Assembly (NCBI GenBank): GCA_963726245.1
Contig: CAVSBT010000015.1
Location: forward strand, 224,001 to 288,000
DNA: 64,000 bases
Source of the DNA: an uncultured Chloroflexia bacterium
Lineage (GTDB): Bacteria > Chloroflexota > Dehalococcoidia > DSTF01 > JALHUB01
Direction: 5' to 3'
A model generated the notes under the pieces. It ran no database searches. It was not told where the DNA came from and was given only the letters and a program-made list of their open reading frames with translations. Position numbers and translations under genes: made by a program. This document shows, piece after piece, positions 4,425 through 62,318 of this stretch. Position 1 is the stretch's first letter; each line of letters opens with the position of its first letter.

Positions 4425-5269
4425 GCCCCGTGGAGCCCATCGACTTCATAGAGCGCTGGCGGCGCATCATCGAAGAGCGCAGGCTTCAGACGGACGCCGC
4501 CTACGCCCGCCTGGGCCGCACCACCGCCGACTACTGGGCGCGCCGCGCCGGCCGCTTCGCCGCCTTCAGCCGCGAGTCCCGCCCCGACCCGTTCCTGGAG
4601 AAGGTGCTCGCCTTCGTCGACGGCCGCTCCACGGTGCTGGACGTGGGAGCCGGCACCGGCCGCCACTCGGTGCCGCTGGCGCACGTGGCGAAGCGGGTCC
4701 TGGCAGTCGAGCCGTCGGCGGCTATGGCCTCTCGCCTGCGGGAGTGGGCGCAGAATGAAGGTCTGGGCAACATCGAGGTCATCGAGGGCGCCTGGCCCGA
4801 TGTTGACGTCCCTGCCTGCGACGTGGCCATCTCCTCCCACGTGCTCTACCCGGTGGCGGAGGTGGAGCCCTTCCTGCGCAGGCTGGACGCCTCGGCGCGG
4901 CGCCACTGCTTCCTCTGGCTCCACGACGGCCAGATGGCCCTGGAGTCGCTGGGGCTCTGGGAGCGCTTCCACGGGGAGCCACGCGCCCGCCAGCCCACCG
5001 TCCGCGACGCGCTGCCCGTCCTCTGGCAGATGGGCCTGCGCCCCAATCTGGAGATGAAAACCCTGCCTGAGAGCTGGTCGTGGGAGAGCATGGACGAGGC
5101 GGCCGGGCACTTTCGCGAGCACCTGGCTATCCCGGAGGACGAGGCCACGGAGGCACGGCTGCGGGAGATGCTGACCGCTGCCCTCGTGCAGCGCGAGGGC
5201 CGCCTCCACCTGCCGAGGACGACGTACCGGTCGGCCATCGTGTGGTGGGAGAAGGAGGGAGCGCCATGA
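4421..5269 (+). CDS. Class I SAM-dependent methyltransferase
   Basis: VLDVGAGTG motif I and AVEPS motif II; ATGA overlap with the upstream gene. Confidence 0.88.
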   Translation: MSPVEPIDFIERWRRIIEERRLQTDAAYARLGRTTADYWARRAGRFAAFSRESRPDPFLEKVLAFVDGRSTVLDVGAGTGRHSVPLAHVAKRVLAVEPSAAMASRLREWAQNEGLGNIEVIEGAWPDVDVPACDVAISSHVLYPVAEVEPFLRRLDASARRHCFLWLHDGQMALESLGLWERFHGEPRARQPTVRDALPVLWQMGLRPNLEMKTLPESWSWESMDEAAGHFREHLAIPEDEATEARLREMLTAALVQREGRLHLPRTTYRSAIVWWEKEGAP

Positions 5270-55421: not shown

Positions 55422-56276
55422 CTATTCTTGGGTTTCGAACGCCCGCATCGCCAGCAGCATCATGACGACGGCAAAGCAGGCAAGGATGAGGATATCCTCA
55501 AACGTTCCCAGGTGGTGATTGGCAATCTTGATGCCGGGAGCGAGCTTGGCGCCGAGAAGGAGGCGCCGCATCGGGTCTACACCGTAGGCGACGGGGTCGA
55601 GGCGAGTGACAACGCTCATCCATACCGGCAGTTGCTTCAGAGGGAAGAACGCGCCGCTCAGGAAGAACATGGGCATGATGAGGAAGTTCATGATCATCTG
55701 GAAGGCTTGCATGGATTCGAGGCGGGCCGCTATGAGGATGCCCATGGAGGTGAGAGCCAGCGCCGTCAGGAACATGAGGCCCAGGAGCTCGAGGACAAGC
55801 AACGGGTTCAGCGATACGCCGAGGATGGGCGCCAGGATCAGTAGGATCGCACCCTGGAACATGGCCACGGTGCTCCCGCCAAGGGCTTTTCCCAGCACCA
55901 CCGCCGCCCGGCTGATGGGGGCCACCAGCACCTCACGCAGGAAGCCGAACTCCCTGTCCCAGACGATGGACATGGCGCTGAAGACCGCTGTGAAGAGCAC
56001 CGCCATGGCGACGATGCCCGGGAAGAGGAAGCGGACGTAAGACACGTCGCCCAGTTCCGACGTGAGGCCGGCGCCCAGCGAGGCCGTCAGGCCGCTGCCG
56101 AAGACGACCAGGAACAGGAGCGGCTGGCCCAGTGAGGAAACAAGCCGGGCGCGGTCGCGCCAGTAGCGCAGCACCTCGCGATACCAGATGATGTAGACAC
56201 CGCTGGCGTTGGCCCTGACGTCCGCCCGCCAGCCGCGGGCGGGCAGCGCAGCAGTCGGTGCATAGGTAGTGGTCAT
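55422..56276 (-). CDS. ABC-2 type permease (DrrB-like)
   Basis: DREFGFLREVLVAP, FFLSGAFFP, TM helices. Confidence 0.9.
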   Translation of the reverse strand: MTTTYAPTAALPARGWRADVRANASGVYIIWYREVLRYWRDRARLVSSLGQPLLFLVVFGSGLTASLGAGLTSELGDVSYVRFLFPGIVAMAVLFTAVFSAMSIVWDREFGFLREVLVAPISRAAVVLGKALGGSTVAMFQGAILLILAPILGVSLNPLLVLELLGLMFLTALALTSMGILIAARLESMQAFQMIMNFLIMPMFFLSGAFFPLKQLPVWMSVVTRLDPVAYGVDPMRRLLLGAKLAPGIKIANHHLGTFEDILILACFAVVMMLLAMRAFETQE

Positions 56277-57260
56277 CTAGCGCCGTCCTCCTCTCCACAA
56301 GTCGCCCGTGGAGCCGCATCATGGTCACCGGGTTCGCCTCCTGCTCCCGAATTGCGCGTCCCGTAAGCTTCAGGAAGACGTCGTCCAGCGTCGGCCGGTG
56401 CAGGTCCACCGAATTGACGGAGATTCCGAGCTCACGGACGAGCCGGGGAATGAACTCGGCGCCGGCCTCGACCTCCAGGCGGAGGCGCGTGTCATCTCGC
56501 TTCGGCTCCAGGCCGAACCGCTCCCGGATCTCCTGCGCCGCCCGCTCATCGTCCTCGGTCTGAAGGCTCACGATGTCCACACCCACCATGCCTTTGAGCG
56601 CGTCCGGCGTGTCCAGCGCCACTATCTTCCCCTGGTCAATGATGGCGATGCGATGGCAGTGCTCCGCCTCGTCCATGTAGTGGGTGGTCATGAAGATGGT
56701 GATCCCGTGGGCTCGCTGCAGCTCCAGGATGTACGTCCCAGACATGCTCGCGCGTCTGAGGGTCCAGCCCAAGAGTCGGCTCATCCAGGAAGAGGACGCT
56801 GGGATGATGCAGGATCCCGCGGGCGATCTCGAGACGCCGCTTCATGCCTCCGGAGAACGTGCGGACAATGGCGTCGCGGCGATCCCACAGCTCGACGACC
56901 CGCAGCACCTCCTCGATCCGCTGGGCGCGCTCACCGCCCGGCACGTTGTACACGTGGGCGTGAAAGCTGGAGGTTCTCATAGGCGGTGAGCTGATCGTCG
57001 ACGCTCGGGTCCTGGAACACGAGGCCGATCGATTGGCGGACGGCATTCCGCTGGGTCGCTACGTCGTAGCCCGCAACCCTGGCCGTGCCCGCCGTCGGGC
57101 GCATCAGCGTGCAGAGGATGTTGATAGTCGTGGTCTTGCCGGCCCCATTGGGCCCGAGGAAGCCGAAGACCTCACCCTCCTCTACCTGGAAGCTGATGTG
57201 GTCGACCGCGGTGAGAGGGCCGAAGTTCTTGGTGAGTCCGATGACCTCAACGGAAGACAT
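56277..57260 (-). CDS. ABC transporter ATP-binding protein, DrrA-like (indels near 56970, 56740, 56290)
   Basis: GPNGAGKTT, FSGGMKRRLE, LFLDEPT, TTHYMDEAE across frames. Confidence 0.88.
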
Positions 57261-57398
57261 CTATCATTATTATACTTCCAAGGCGGGCATCGAGCCGAAT
57301 TGTGGCGAGTCTCACATTCCTTGTGACGCGCTTGACATCCTTTCGGTTGATGGGTAGCGTGAATCTGTAGAGGGAAGACTGGTGTCAGGGAGGGAGCC

Positions 57399-58069
57399 AT
57401 GTCGTCATCCGATCAGCCGAGTCTCGCGAGACAGCTCATCATCATTCACGCAGCCATCACTCGGGGTCTCGAAGTGGCCATGAGTCGCAGCCGGTCCTTT
57501 GCCAGCAGGGCTTGTCCGATGCGTCGGTCCGATCAGGGTTCATCAGCTACCTACGGAGCTTCGTGTCCGTGCTTAATGCCCACCATCTGACGGAAGATGA
57601 GGTGATCTTCCCCTATTTCCGAGAGCAGATGTGGGAAGCGCCCTTTGACCTGCTGATGGCTCAGCACCATGCCATGGTGCGCCTGCTCGATGAAATGAAG
57701 GTGGAGATAGACGAGGCGGAGAGTCGTCCTCAAACCATTGAACCATTCGCCTCCATCGCCTGCGTTGCGACCGAGCTAGCCGAGACCTGGCATCCCCACA
57801 TCGTGAACGAAGAGACAGTCTTCAGTGCGGAGAGGATTGACGCGAGAGTCGCTCCAGATGAACAGCTCAGGCTGGGGAAGCTGTCAACCGAACACGGTAT
57901 GGCGCACTCCGGGCCCGATTACCTAGTCGTACCCTTCATCCTCTACAACCTGTCGCCCGAACAGAGGGAGACTCTCACGGATGAGATGCCTCCGATTGTC
58001 ACGCAGCAGCTTGTGCCGATCGCCTGGAAGGCGCAATGGGAGCCCATGTCGCCGTTCCTCCTAGAGTGA
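57399..58069 (+). CDS. Hemerythrin (HHE) domain protein (indel near 57510)
   Basis: IIIHAAITRGL, AHHLTEDEVIFP, AQHH, HPHIVNEE. Confidence 0.8.
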
Positions 58070-58098
58070 CGGAGGCCGGCGCCTGGCAGGAGGGAAGA

Positions 58099-58242
58099 AT
58101 GCCGAGCCTGCGAGCCACGTTTTCGAACCTGAGGGGGCCCATGCCGCTGGGACGCAAGATCCAGAGGCTCGTCGCCAACAACTGGACCAAGGTGCGGACG
58201 CGCAGCAACTGCTGCGGCCACCCCGGCGAGCCCGGGTGTTGA
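58099..58242 (+). CDS. 47-aa basic peptide ending CCGHPGEPGC; TGA possibly Sec, extending to 58287
   Basis: AGGAGGG RBS, ATG 58099, TGT-TGA at 58237-58242. Confidence 0.75.
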   Translation: MPSLRATFSNLRGPMPLGRKIQRLVANNWTKVRTRSNCCGHPGEPGC

Positions 58243-58247
58243 GAGGC

Positions 58248-58276
58248 GGCCACAGGCTCGGGTGCCGAGCCAGGCC
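58248..58276 (+). promoter_or_regulatory. Candidate bacterial SECIS hairpin
   Basis: GGCC-aca-GGCTCGG-gtg-CCGAGCC-a-GGCC; GU-containing loop 18-19 nt after the TGA; no U-tract. Confidence 0.45.
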
Positions 58277-58444
58277 AGCAAGGGTAAGCGGACCCCAGGA
58301 TTTGGTGCCTCTGGATTCACAGTGCCTCCGTGCTCTAGAGCCTCGCCGACTCAGAAGCTGCTGCTTCTACCCACACGGATCGTTGACGCTGGGGGGAGAT
58401 CGGTTGGAGCCCCGCCGCGGGAGAATCACCCAGGAGGTAACGGG

Positions 58445-58909
58445 ATGTGGAAGCTGGTCGTGGCGACCGGAATGGCGACCGCTCTTGCGCTCGTCATTGT
58501 CGCGAGCACCCAAGCGGCAATTCCACCGCTGAAGGCGCGTCTGCAGCCCGTGGGCGAGTCGAATGCGCACGGGAAAGTGGTATGGAAAAGAATGTCGGAG
58601 CAAGTCCCCCTCCACGTGCGCATCCGTGGCGCAGTGCCGCTTTCCAAGGTATCGCTCCGCGTTTGCGGGCTGACGGAAGACAGCGTCACAGGTAATCGCT
58701 TCGATCAATGCTGGGCCACGTTCACGGATTCCTGCCCGCCACATCCTAAGCATTCAGATCGACAGAAAGGGAAGGGCAGAAGTCAAGGTGATCCCGAAGC
58801 TGGCCGTCGCATCTGTTCACCTCTTGGAGGCCGAAAGAGTCGAACTATACGACTACCCCAGCGGAGAACTCATCGCGGTAGGCGAAATGGACGCGAGAGG
58901 GCGCGCTGA
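58445..58909 (+). CDS. Hypothetical exported protein (probably contains indels)
   Basis: AGGAGG RBS; signal-like MWKLVVATGMATALALVIVASTQA. Confidence 0.5.
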   Translation: MWKLVVATGMATALALVIVASTQAAIPPLKARLQPVGESNAHGKVVWKRMSEQVPLHVRIRGAVPLSKVSLRVCGLTEDSVTGNRFDQCWATFTDSCPPHPKHSDRQKGKGRSQGDPEAGRRICSPLGGRKSRTIRLPQRRTHRGRRNGRERAR

Positions 58910-59036: not shown

Positions 59037-59760
59037 GTGTCGTCCATCTCCTACCCCGACCCAGGCGGCAACTTTGATGACCGGGCAATCCTGCGCAACG
59101 CCGTCTTGTTCTCAACGCCTCAGCGCTCCTTTGTCGCGGAGCAGATACGCTGTGCACCGGTAGAGAGGATGACCTTCCTAGGCCGCGCATATCTCGCGGT
59201 GGAGGCCTACTCGTGCAAAGCGCTGTCGCTAGAAGACTTCCTCGGATGGGTTGTCGTGCTTCGCGGGTGGGAGCCGGGAACGGTGGATAAGAGTCTTTGG
59301 GTGCTTCTCGACAAGAAACAGTTGAACGAGCAGGCCGAAAAGAAACTGGAGGACTGGGCCAAGGGCGTTACATCTGACCAACTGCGTGAGGCATTTCATA
59401 TTCCCACCGATAAAGAGCTGAGGGGCGCAGGGTTTGCCGAGGAGGTGGTTAACAGGATCAATACAGCAGTGTTAGCTCATGTTGACAGTGTAAGGCGAGC
59501 CATCGACTTCAGGACTCGAAACCAGCGCCGATTTGTCGTCGGGCACAACAAGATAAAGCACCTGCTGCTCGCGGTTCCCCAAGAGGAGGAGAACCGCATT
59601 CTTTTCCCTCGCTACAAGGGCACCAAAGAGGATGAGCACGGGCGGACGAGCCACCGGGTGCAGACGGCGGGAATCTCTTGTGAGTCAGACAACATCAGGC
59701 AGGTAGCGAGTGAAGCCATCGTCGGGCAGGCAGCCCTCAACGAACTTGCTCACCCTCAGC
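59037..59760 (+). CDS. Hypothetical protein with HEPN-like HNKIKH motif; true 3' end uncertain
   Basis: About 240 globular residues with atypical, more A-rich codons. The ORF tail to 60017 is antisense to the neighbouring gene. Confidence 0.5.
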
Positions 59761-59887
59761 CCACAGACCCCGTGGTCTACAGCCAGGCTAGAGGACTTCG
59801 TGAGGTGGTACGGGCAGGCGACTGGCTGTTCGCAGGGGCGGCCGTGACGGCCGCCCCTGATCCACAAGTCTGCGGGCTGCGGGTGCG

Positions 59888-62318
59888 CTACGGCGGCCCA
59901 GAGCAGTCCAAGTTCACCTGGGCCAGCGCCGCCAGCACATCGGACATGTTCACGCCGCCGTTCGGCGGGCCCGCGTCCCAGGGCGGGTTCGGCACAGCAC
60001 TGGGCGAGCGGTCGTAGAATCCCGTCCGTCGCTTCACCGTCCGATCGCACGATCCTTGTCACGCTGTCGTAGTCCACGCCGTTCGGGTTGACAGGGCCGC
60101 CCTCGTTGGCATTCACGTAGCAGAGCACCGCCAGCACGTCGGCGATGGTCACGGCCCTGTTCTTGGGGCCGTTGGCCGTCGGGTCCGGGTTGGCGGGCAC
60201 GGGCACGTCGAAGAAGTCGTACCAGGTCAGCGGGACTGAAGCCAGGCATAAACAGGTACTCCCGTCCGTCCCTGCAGCCATCGCCGTCCGTGTCAGCGTT
60301 CTGCGGGTCGGTGCCGATGACCAGGGTCTCCTGGTCGTCGGTGAGACCGTCGCCGTCGGCGTCACACGGTCCCGTGATCCACGGGGTCGAAGTCCACGTT
60401 GTCACTTACGGCGTCACCGGTGCCAAGGGGGTTGGACGGATGGGACGGACCGCTGCAGGAGCCCCACCAGTTGTTCTCGGCGTTGGCGACGCCGCCGGAG
60501 GTGTTGTTCTCACCGTAGAGGATGTTGCCCCGAATGTCGTTGTAGTGGACTTCGGCGCCGCTGTCGTCGATACCGACCTGGTTGCCGGTGATGACGTTGC
60601 CCGTGACGGTGGCCGTCCCCTGGTAGACCATGATTCCCGCCGCCGTCCAGCACGCGTCGTAGTACGCCGCATCGCCCTTGGTCCCAGGCCCGGCGCAAAC
60701 GCCCGTCCCCAGGGTGTAGACATGGTTGGACACGGTGTTGTTCTCGATCCTTGCCACCGCGTTGGGGCCCACCTGAATGCCGTTCTGAGCGTTGACCTGC
60801 CCGGGGCCGCCTCCTGTCACGGTGTTGCCGGAAACAGTCACGTTGGTGCCGGTGTTGTCGTCCGCCGCCTTGCCGACGGTGATGCCGTTCTTCGCGTATC
60901 CCGACATCACGTTGTCCTTGACCGTTCCGGTCACGGACAGGCGGAGCCTGACCGCGTCATAGCCGCCCGTGAATGTGTTGTTGTGCACATTCAGGTTGAC
61001 GCTGCCCATGGCGTGCAGCCCGCTGTTGGACGGGTCAGCGATGGGAGCCGATATGTTGTTGTTCGGGCCCACGTCCACCAAGGTGAACATTCCCGTCGGT
61101 GCAGCCGCTCGTGCACTGGGCGACCACGACCCCGGTCCCCCAGTTGCTGATCGTGTTCCCGCTCGCCGTGAAGCTGACGTTCTCAGGACCCCAGCCCGCG
61201 TCCGCCTCCAGGCCGACGGAGTCGACGCTGCCGTCGCCCGTGAGGGTGTTGCCGCTCACCACGACGGTCATGACCCCCGCACTCATGGGCGCTGCGGCCT
61301 AGGACCGCCGGCAGGCGGAGCCGCCTCGTCCTCGAAGGGGCTGGCGCTCAGGCCCGGCGGGTCGGACGACGTCGATGCCCCAGTAGTCGGGCCTGCCGAC
61401 GCCCGCCGTGGTCGCCGACACCGTGTTCCCGCTGATCGTCCCGGAGCCCTCGATGTAGTAGAGGCCGAGCTGGCCGTTGTTCAGGTGGTTGCCGGTGATG
61501 CCGACGTTGGCGGAGTAGACCAGGACGTCGGTGGCGGCCCAGTCCGGCCCGGTGTAGGAGTTGTTGGAGACGGTGTTGCCGTCCACGGTTCCTGTTGCCC
61601 CGTAGCCCACCTGGATGCCGTTCTGGGCCGCGTTGCCAGCGCCCACAGGCCCGCGGCCTGTCACCGTGCTGCCCGTCACAGTGCAAACGGTGCCAGGTTC
61701 GTTGCAGGTGATGCCATTCTTCCCGTAGTTGTCGACGGTGCTGCTGCTGACCTGGACGGTCGAGCCGCCACCACCACCGCTCTGGGCGAAGATCCCGATC
61801 ACTGACTGGCATCCGGGCGCGCTCGGGTGGAAGACGCCAGTCGTGCGGGTGAGTCTATCGTCCCCGACGAGTTCCTGTAGAAGATGCCCATGTAGCCCGG
61901 CGAACAGCTATTGAAGGCTGCCGCGCTGCCATCCACGGTCAGGTGCTTGACTGTCACCCCAGCCACGCCGTTCACCAAGATAATGGTCACGATGGGAGCG
62001 CCTGAGTAGAGACTCGTTGTGTTGGCCGTGGCGGTGGCGGGCTTCACGATGGTGGAGCCTATTCCAGCACCGTCCAGTGTCAGGTTCGCCGTCGCGATGC
62101 TGACCTGCTCACTGAACGTGCCCGCCTTCGCGTTTACGGTGCCGTTGGGATTGGACGCGTTCGCGCCTGCCTGGATGGAGGCGTAGCTGCCGACGGGGCT
62201 GGTCGTTGTCACCGGCGCGAAGCTGGCGCCTCCCGGCGGAGAGGCGTTGAGCCAGGGCACGAAGTCCACGTTGTCGGACACAGACACGCTGCGACACGGC
62301 GAGCCGAAGAATTCTCAT
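59888..62318 (-). pseudogene. Surface protein with right-handed beta-helix repeats, Ca-binding DxDGDG repeats and flexitail-like C-terminus; 5'-deleted and indel-split
   Basis: Repeated YGKNGI / AQNGIQVG, NWWGSCSGP, DADGDGLTDDQE, DTDGDGC, WYDFFDVP; terminal YDRSPS...GVNMSDVLAALAQVNLDC-SGPP-stop (59888). Confidence 0.72.

Follow-up and report, generated by a model that had tools for sequence, protein, structure and literature searches.

Does the short gene at positions 58099-58287 of the DNA studied here end at its first in-frame UGA, or is that codon read as selenocysteine (Sec)? The DNA, called the window below, is a stretch of 64,000 nucleotides (positions 224,001 to 288,000 of contig CAVSBT010000015.1, assembly GCA_963726245.1) from an uncultured Chloroflexia bacterium placed in the Dehalococcoidia. 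An earlier note on the window had proposed that the gene encodes a new selenopeptide of 62 amino acids, with UGA 58240 decoded as Sec by means of a hairpin resembling a Sec insertion sequence (SECIS). We compared the codon at this position among homologues, the fold and conservation of the hairpin, and the Sec machinery of the genomes that carry the gene, and all three strongly supported this core proposal. All of the sequence hallmarks of recoding that depends on SelB and a SECIS are present, and they predict a 62-residue selenoprotein. We put the probability that 58099-58287 is a gene for such a protein, with its UGA recoded through the hairpin, at roughly 0.88.

The codon at the predicted Sec position

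The read-through protein was compared to 60 relatives of the window's genome, which gave 28 loci when the window's own is counted; these represent five families within a single order. At each of these 28 loci, ...CCG[HN]xG[EQD]PGC was followed by TGA and then by 11 to 28 more in-frame codons. Two other matches from this search (L046 and L047) lacked the motif and were dropped as chance matches. A second search used the pattern CCG[HN]xG[EQ]PGC, with the next codon left unspecified, against one genome for each of 185,579 species and returned at least 600 matching stretches, 541 of those listed being confirmed as relatives. The best 78 of the at least 541 confirmed loci were kept. They contain 80 instances of the motif, of which 69 are followed by TGA, 8 by TGT, and 3 by TGC; TAA, TAG, and all other codons are absent from this set. 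Across the 108 homologous genes from both searches (28 + 80), TGA followed ...PGC in 97 and a Cys codon (TGT or TGC) in 11, while TAA, TAG, or another sense codon was found at the U position in none (0/108). For the hairpin counts given below, L057, which is identical to L022, and L060, which is truncated where its contig ends, were removed, leaving 95 Sec forms and 11 Cys forms, a ratio of about nine to one. At their true ends the 95 Sec-form genes use all three stop codons (TAG 45, TGA 33, and TAA 17); if the key position held an ordinary stop, it would therefore not be TGA in every case. The Cys forms extend in frame past the aligned Cys, as in ...PGC-C-EGSSAKPHSHG and ...PGC-C-E. The family is widespread among anaerobic bacteria, with carriers of the gene in Chloroflexota (Dehalococcoidia and Anaerolineae), Desulfobacterota and their relatives, Nitrospirota, Actinomycetota, and Bacillota. 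One locus in an Anaerolineales metagenome-assembled genome (MAG), L067, holds three tandem paralogues within 3.7 kb, each with its own TGA (at 4604, 6139, and 8242) and its own hairpin.

A profile search of 1.84 billion representative proteins gave 516 clusters at 50% identity with E <= 1e-3, and 218 with E <= 1e-10. Among the best 150 of the 516 clusters, 126 end at ...PGC, 6 go on with C, 5 with W, and 1 with Q, and the remaining 12 have variant or frameshifted motifs. The 126 proteins that end at ...PGC, together with the gene callers' annotation that they reflect, are what would be expected if the gene encoded an ordinary 47-residue Cys-rich peptide that stops at UGA 58240, the hairpin serving only to stabilise or end the transcript. 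This genome also uses TGA as an ordinary stop, the hemerythrin gene just upstream (58067-69) being an example, and the frame that follows the TGA is not unusually long, its median in the 95 homologues being 15 codons versus 34 and 18 in the other two frames. Early termination, however, does not account for the Cys codons aligned with the TGA in 11 homologues that continue in frame, nor for a position that never holds TAA or TAG when 65% of the true stops are one or the other. It is also opposed by the results of the next two sections: the hairpin is missing from the Cys forms and has no U-tract, its G-rich loop lies at a fixed distance from the UGA, and carriers of the gene track selA. We consider an ordinary 47-residue peptide highly improbable.

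A conserved hairpin downstream of the UGA

The RNA from 58240 to 58285 folds as a two-tier hairpin; its lower tier begins at 58246, and the whole structure ends at 58279. The upper stem, GGCUCGG/CCGAGCC (58255-58261/58265-58271), has 7 bp and closes an apical loop of GUG (58262-58264). The minimum free energy (MFE) of the hairpin was -22.6 kcal/mol (z = -2.88), with none of 200 shuffled sequences folding equally well, and that of the upper stem alone was -11.5 kcal/mol. The earlier note had the hairpin starting 18-19 nt after the TGA; this figure held for the spacing between the UGA and the apical loop, which is 19 nt, but not for the start of the hairpin, since the lower tier begins 3 nt and the upper stem 12 nt after the UGA. 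Its observation that no U-tract lies 3' of the hairpin was confirmed, and a search of 57200-58600 turned up no site resembling a terminator or a promoter. A scan of 58150-58400 against Rfam gave no family match, only a chance match to a long noncoding RNA (E 1.1).

Nearly all of the 95 Sec forms have a hairpin of 5-9 bp with a small loop starting with G (GGU, GUG, CGU, GUU, GGC, and others). The sequences of the stems vary widely by lineage (GGCUCGG, GAGUCCG, GAGACUG, CCUCCU, CGCCC, and AGCCUC). When the 95 Sec forms were aligned with MAFFT without structural guidance, RNAalifold returned a helix of 5 pairs, and compensatory double changes were present in all 5. For a 7-pair helix, 80.6% of the cells were paired, compared to 55.0% in column shuffles, and the covariation score was 0.609, compared to 0.176 in the shuffles, of which none of 500 reached the score of the real alignment. 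Control helices in which the partner was shifted by 1-3 columns scored 0.265 or less.

The consensus for bacterial SECIS elements (bSECIS) stated in the available text of a 2026 review (PMC13188914) has a stem of 4 bp or more, a loop of 3-9 nt with G in its first two positions, a distance of 16-37 nt from the UGA, and an MFE of <= -7.5 kcal/mol. We used these published constraints, as that text gives them, as a strict filter applied to the contiguous upper stem only. The filter was passed by the window, by 72 of the 95 Sec forms, and by 60 of 950 dinucleotide shuffles (6.3%), but by none of the 11 Cys forms, from all of which the hairpin is absent. Within the 72 Sec forms that passed, the loop starts 16-22 nt after the UGA. 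Different amino acids are encoded by the hairpin in different lineages (GSGAEP, ESGPDS, and PREG) at approximately the same distance from the UGA, and where the tail has only 0-4 codons (loci L128, L093, L125, L095, L097-L099, and L113) the hairpin is kept beyond the true stop. Because differing residues encode it and it persists past the stop, the constraint on the RNA can be separated from the constraint on the protein.

Sec machinery in the genomes that carry the gene

The genome containing the window is a 2.68-Mb MAG of 46 contigs that is 82.8% complete and 6.3% contaminated. It has selA (548 bits), selB (258 bits, over the cut-off, plus a C-terminal match 1 kb further on), a Sec-type selD with one in-frame TGA, and two tRNA-Sec genes with the anticodon TCA (L048 and L049, at G000:C31:67876-67969 and G000:C19:83811-83904). 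There is a second selD-like gene, which matches in two adjacent pieces; the selD matches lie at G000:C27:105940-106875 and G000:C31:35422-36172. The paired tRNA-Sec genes, at an estimated contamination of 6.3%, are either a real duplication or derived from a second organism in the bin.

In a comparison of 61 genomes, selA was over the cut-off in 25 of the 28 carrier relatives, and none of the genomes that were at least 90% complete and had no selA over the cut-off carried the gene. These tallies include one unpublished genome (G045) with selA and no significant match to the peptide, and no other claim made here rests on it. Outside this group, selA was present in 5/5 Sec-form carriers labelled as other phyla and in 1/5 Cys-form carriers, the completeness of the Cys-form genomes being unknown. 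In one genome that is 83% complete (G010), selA is spread as ten fragments over contigs C9, C11, and C12, indicating a frameshift-rich or mixed assembly.

The sequence checks proposed in the earlier note thus all fell on the side of Sec: after the last Cys of the motif comes TGA or a Cys codon but in no case TAA or TAG, the hairpin is conserved with covarying stems, and carriers have the Sec machinery, with selA, selB, selD, and tRNA-Sec all in the window's genome. In the mechanism that we propose, SelB carrying Sec-tRNA(Sec) would bind the hairpin at 58246-79, with its GU-containing apical loop 19 nt after the UGA; UGA 58240-42 would then be decoded as Sec, and translation would stop at TAA 58285-87.

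Several observations weigh against this interpretation. Because the homologues share ancestry, the codon counts are not independent events and overstate the independence of the evidence. The 14 open codons after the TGA are not significant on their own. A few database proteins depart from the Sec/Cys pattern at the U position, having Leu (P0003), Gln (P0157), or, in five cases, Trp, although the five Trp cases are probably TGA codons read as Trp by the gene caller. The strict bSECIS filter was failed by 23 of the 95 Sec forms, mostly those with 5-bp stems, bulges, or 15-nt spacing. Finally, 3 of the 28 carriers (G008, G043, and G047) lack a full selA, all of them incomplete MAGs (83-85% complete).

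Features of the protein and its possible role

Nine positions are invariant in the 106 aligned sequences (N10, N27, C38, C39, G40, P45, G46, C47, and U/C48), and P16, K20, G43, and E44 are at least 90% conserved. AlphaFold2, run with the family alignment, placed helices at residues 5-12 and 17-34 and gave the motif and tail no regular structure. The net charge of the region before CCG is +7.1 on average in the family and +8 in the window, and the tail is acidic. The residue following U is Q or E in 77 of the 95 Sec forms. The tails are rich in E, G, P, S, and H, with at least three His in 16 of the 95 Sec forms (for example, HHHHHGHEHHDH and HDHDHHDHDHAHH), and several Cys forms have His-rich tails as well (for example, CCISSGSHASGDAHPHDHQH). 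The predicted product would open with a strongly basic N-terminal region, about 37 residues long and with two predicted helices, followed by the flexible segment C38-C39-G-H-x-G-E-P-G-C47-U48 and a short acidic tail. The CC and CU pairs, eight residues apart and joined by a G-x-P-G turn on the flexible end, would be the active site, and the basic helices may serve to anchor the tail to an acidic partner, a nucleic acid, or a membrane.

What would such a protein do? The odds are about even that it provides a binding site for a thiophilic metal or metalloid and acts as a chaperone, buffer, or sensor, a proposal based on its four S/Se ligands plus His41 and on the His-rich tails of many members. 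Animal thioredoxin reductase has a C-terminal Gly-Cys-Sec-Gly redox centre on a flexible segment, and by analogy with this GCUG tail the CU and CC pairs could instead work as a redox-active selenenylsulfide/disulfide relay in a free-standing selenoprotein with no metal site. The G-C-U on a flexible C-terminal segment is in keeping with a relay, as are the redox and oxidative-stress genes scattered among the neighbours, including the hemerythrin at the window locus. However, no such neighbour is conserved, the enzyme near L064 scores as a dihydrolipoyl dehydrogenase, and the His-rich tails in many members favour metal binding; we regard the relay as a possible but less probable function. A role other than these two is unlikely.

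Some features tell against assigning a function in this way. The structural model has modest confidence (mean pLDDT, the predicted local distance difference test score, of 64; pTM, the predicted template modelling score, of 0.44). The tail of the window's own protein has no His, and some members have Asn in place of the CCGH His. Helix 17-34 is significantly amphipathic in the window (z 1.85) but weakly so in the family as a whole (mean z 0.95), and for the latter reason the idea of an amphipathic membrane anchor was dropped. To these is added the lack of a common neighbour, described next.

Genomic neighbourhood

Neighbouring genes were clustered over the 106 loci, and none was shared across lineages; synteny was specific to each lineage, and the context therefore leaves the function undefined. 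In much of the window's order, the gene follows leuC-leuD (aconitase-family subunits) at 11 loci (L026, L028, L030-L036, L038, and L040), with leuB (isopropylmalate dehydrogenase) on its other side wherever the downstream gene could be seen. It is flanked by genes for a nucleoside diphosphate (NDP)-sugar transferase and GGACT in one group of Dehalococcoidia. The Cys forms follow genes for 2-oxoacid:ferredoxin oxidoreductase and lie beside a dihydrolipoyl dehydrogenase-like gene. A heliorhodopsin gene adjoins at six loci (L022, L056, L057, L058, L059, and L083, L057 having the sequence of L022), that of L022 matching PF18761 with an E of 3e-88. Redox and iron genes are scattered among the neighbours: rubrerythrin and ferritin (L085), MsrA (L073), a thioredoxin-like protein (L088), a flavin reductase-rubredoxin (L096), and Fur. 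Pyridine nucleotide-disulfide oxidoreductases are found near L064, L107, and L123.

The functional link to the hemerythrin gene suggested in the earlier note did not hold up. When the hemerythrin was compared by tblastn to the 106 homologous loci, the only match was at the window's own locus (L018), so the two genes are adjacent in the window's genome only, in keeping with the variation of the neighbours between lineages. Local cotranscription across the 29-nt gap between them is possible.

The neighbourhood also bears on two other explanations of the gene. The first is that it encodes the precursor of a ribosomally synthesized and posttranslationally modified peptide (RiPP), in which a leader and a Cys-rich core, with or without Sec, are modified and exported. 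A small peptide with a Cys-rich C-terminal core would suit such a precursor, and genes for radical S-adenosylmethionine (SAM) proteins are near two of the loci (L122 and L132). Over the 106 loci, however, there was no recurrent adjacent maturase, protease, or exporter/transporter; the N-terminal part is as conserved as the "core," unlike typical leaders; and the gene is single copy in most genomes and lies inside a leuCD-leuB cluster in one order. The RiPP-like alternative raised in the earlier note is thus unsupported by any recurring maturase-type neighbour, and we view it as extremely improbable. The second is that passage through the UGA reports the supply of Sec-tRNA and so controls a downstream gene, the peptide itself having no function. 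It is true that the gene is a short open reading frame (ORF), has a recoded UGA, and immediately precedes other genes, but the peptide is strongly conserved, with nine invariant positions, Cys forms without a UGA exist, and the genes downstream vary by lineage and are often on the opposite strand. Such a selenium-sensing leader is barely credible and the least probable of the explanations considered.

Structure of the locus

The ribosome-binding site, 47 codons, TGA, 14-codon open frame, and TAA ending at 58287 that the earlier note described were all found where it had placed them (Table 1). Translation of the 47 sense codons from ATG 58099 gives MPSLRATFSNLRGPMPLGRKIQRLVANNWTKVRTRSNCCGHPGEPGC, and this start agrees with the "MP[SND]L[RK]" starts of close homologues.

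Table 1. Features of the predicted selenoprotein locus and its upstream neighbour, in window coordinates
Feature	Position	Strand	Basis
Shine-Dalgarno-like AGGAGGG	58088..58094	+	4 nt ahead of ATG 58099; read directly from sequence
Predicted selenoprotein, codons 1-47 (basic helical N-terminal part, then CCGHPGEPGC)	58099..58239	+	Translation
UGA predicted to be read as selenocysteine (U48)	58240..58242	+	Aligned TGA/Cys codons in homologues; independent metagenome contigs
Predicted C-terminal tail, 14 codons (EAATGSGAEPGQQG), overlapping the SECIS hairpin	58243..58284	+	Translation
Predicted true stop codon TAA	58285..58287	+	Sequence
Bacterial SECIS-type hairpin	58246..58279	+	Fold MFE/z, bSECIS constraints, covariation in 95 sequences
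Hemerythrin (HHE domain) gene, context only, outside the selenoprotein unit	57399..58069	+	Pfam PF01814, E 6e-12

We aligned 57300-58700 with contigs of four further metagenome runs, no two of them from one study. The TGA at 58240-58242 is not an assembly slip: several of these contigs bridge it (X1 records 5, 7, and 8; X2 record 12; and X3 record 23), and its positions were absent from the listed differences among the contigs, 12 further differences not being displayed. None of the runs listed as containing the locus was an RNA run.

The hemerythrin ORF ends at 58069, 29 nt upstream of the selenoprotein ATG, with TGA 58067-69 as its stop. In this assembly the hemerythrin gene is split near 57502 into two frames (57399.. 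and 57512..). In run X1, a nearly identical contig carries an additional G behind 57502, which would give a single intact hemerythrin ORF, so the frameshift in the window is either an assembly error or a strain variant. Farther upstream, at 55933-57260 on the minus strand, an ABC (ATP-binding cassette)-transporter ATPase seems to run over three overlapping ORFs in different frames (56931-57260, 56636-57046, and 55933-56784), which suggests further indel errors in the assembly. The downstream ORF at 58445-58906 (plus strand) has a signal-peptide-like start (MWKLVVATGMATALALVIVASTQA) and, past approximately residue 95, an Arg-rich, nonsense-looking tail that may be another frameshift. Long ORFs at 59685-61812 (minus strand) contain Gly, Asn, Thr, and Val repeats ("VTGNTVTG" and "NGIQVG") and resemble parallel beta-helix repeat proteins.

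Comparison to known families and systems

ArsD, MerA, and HgcB bind and transfer soft metals through adjacent Cys pairs located on flexible segments. The family described here, with its predicted metal binding, is like these proteins in having vicinal Cys pairs on a flexible segment, but it is unrelated to them in sequence and has no ars, mer, or hgc genes nearby. Compared to thioredoxin reductase, it shares the vicinal Cys-Sec after Gly on a flexible C-terminal segment. It differs in being a free-standing protein of about 50-75 residues without a flavoprotein domain, Pfam and NCBIfam scans finding no pyridine nucleotide-disulfide oxidoreductase domain in the 62-residue protein, and in having a second vicinal pair (CC) eight residues upstream and a bacterial SECIS.

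The gene resembles bacterial genes that use SelB and a SECIS, of which Escherichia coli fdhF is the prototype, in having an in-frame UGA followed by a stem-loop with G and then G/U at the start of a small loop. It also resembles them in having Cys homologues and a host with selA, selB, selD, and tRNA-Sec. The distance to the loop (16-37 nt) and the MFE (<= -7.5 kcal/mol) agree with the values in the available text of PMC13188914. Two features set the gene apart: the protein is unrelated to any of the families listed in that review's table, and Sec is here the last, or nearly the last, functional residue, so the hairpin lies wholly in the 3' untranslated region (UTR) in some members.

The table of PMC13188914 contains 119 prokaryotic selenoprotein families with a Pfam, NCBIfam, or other InterPro-based domain identifier, and the motif is absent from it; the families of two Haft papers were compared through this table and the NCBIfam models only. 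Several of the catalogued families have a Cys-Sec or Cys-rich motif at or near the C terminus, and a metal or organometal role has been proposed for several of these. The type of motif is alike, but the N-terminal domain and CCG[HN]xG[EQ]PGCU occur in no entry of the catalogue as tabulated. The "CU" families named in the available text of the review are SaoC, MbdU, KCU-star, HgcA, SaoL, and CopZ-like, and the models that cover them gave no match to members. Scans of the peptide and 28 members against Pfam and NCBIfam (release 20.0, June 2026) at E <= 10 found no relevant family, and curated selenoprotein models, including SaoC, MbdU, KCU-star, CC/Se motif, and OS_HP3, gave no match among the 28 members. 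A profile search of PDB had 0 matches. No such family was found in the available text of deep-Sep (PMC12013277) or BSepDB (PMC13326102), and in a full-text literature search CCGHPGEPGC, GEPGCU, and GEPGC had no occurrences and PGCU gave nothing relevant. Database members are annotated as 47-residue "hypothetical protein," with one labelled "ribosomal protein L39E." This is a new family inside a well-known kind, the bacterial selenoproteins, and as a large family that crosses phyla it appears to be undescribed.

Significance

We tentatively suggest that the family comprises "chalcogen tail" proteins of about 50-75 residues that present CC and CU pairs on the flexible end of a basic helical anchor and might act in trans on behalf of other enzymes, as Sec-dependent metal(loid) chaperones or electron shuttles, in anaerobic Chloroflexota and Desulfobacterota. 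In this admittedly speculative picture, they would be among the most widespread unannotated bacterial selenoproteins, with Sec nearly obligatory (about nine Sec per Cys). If the selenoprotein interpretation is correct, the approximately 119 prokaryotic families catalogued would gain a large one that spans phyla (516 clusters at 50% identity), and hundreds of "hypothetical protein" annotations that now end too early, at the UGA, would be corrected. The protein would be a very small and tractable model, with Sec beside Cys near the C terminus, in which to ask why Sec is preferred over Cys. It would likewise serve as a model for bacterial SECIS elements located in part or entirely within the 3' UTR, as well as for the use of selenium in the poorly known Chloroflexota of sediments.

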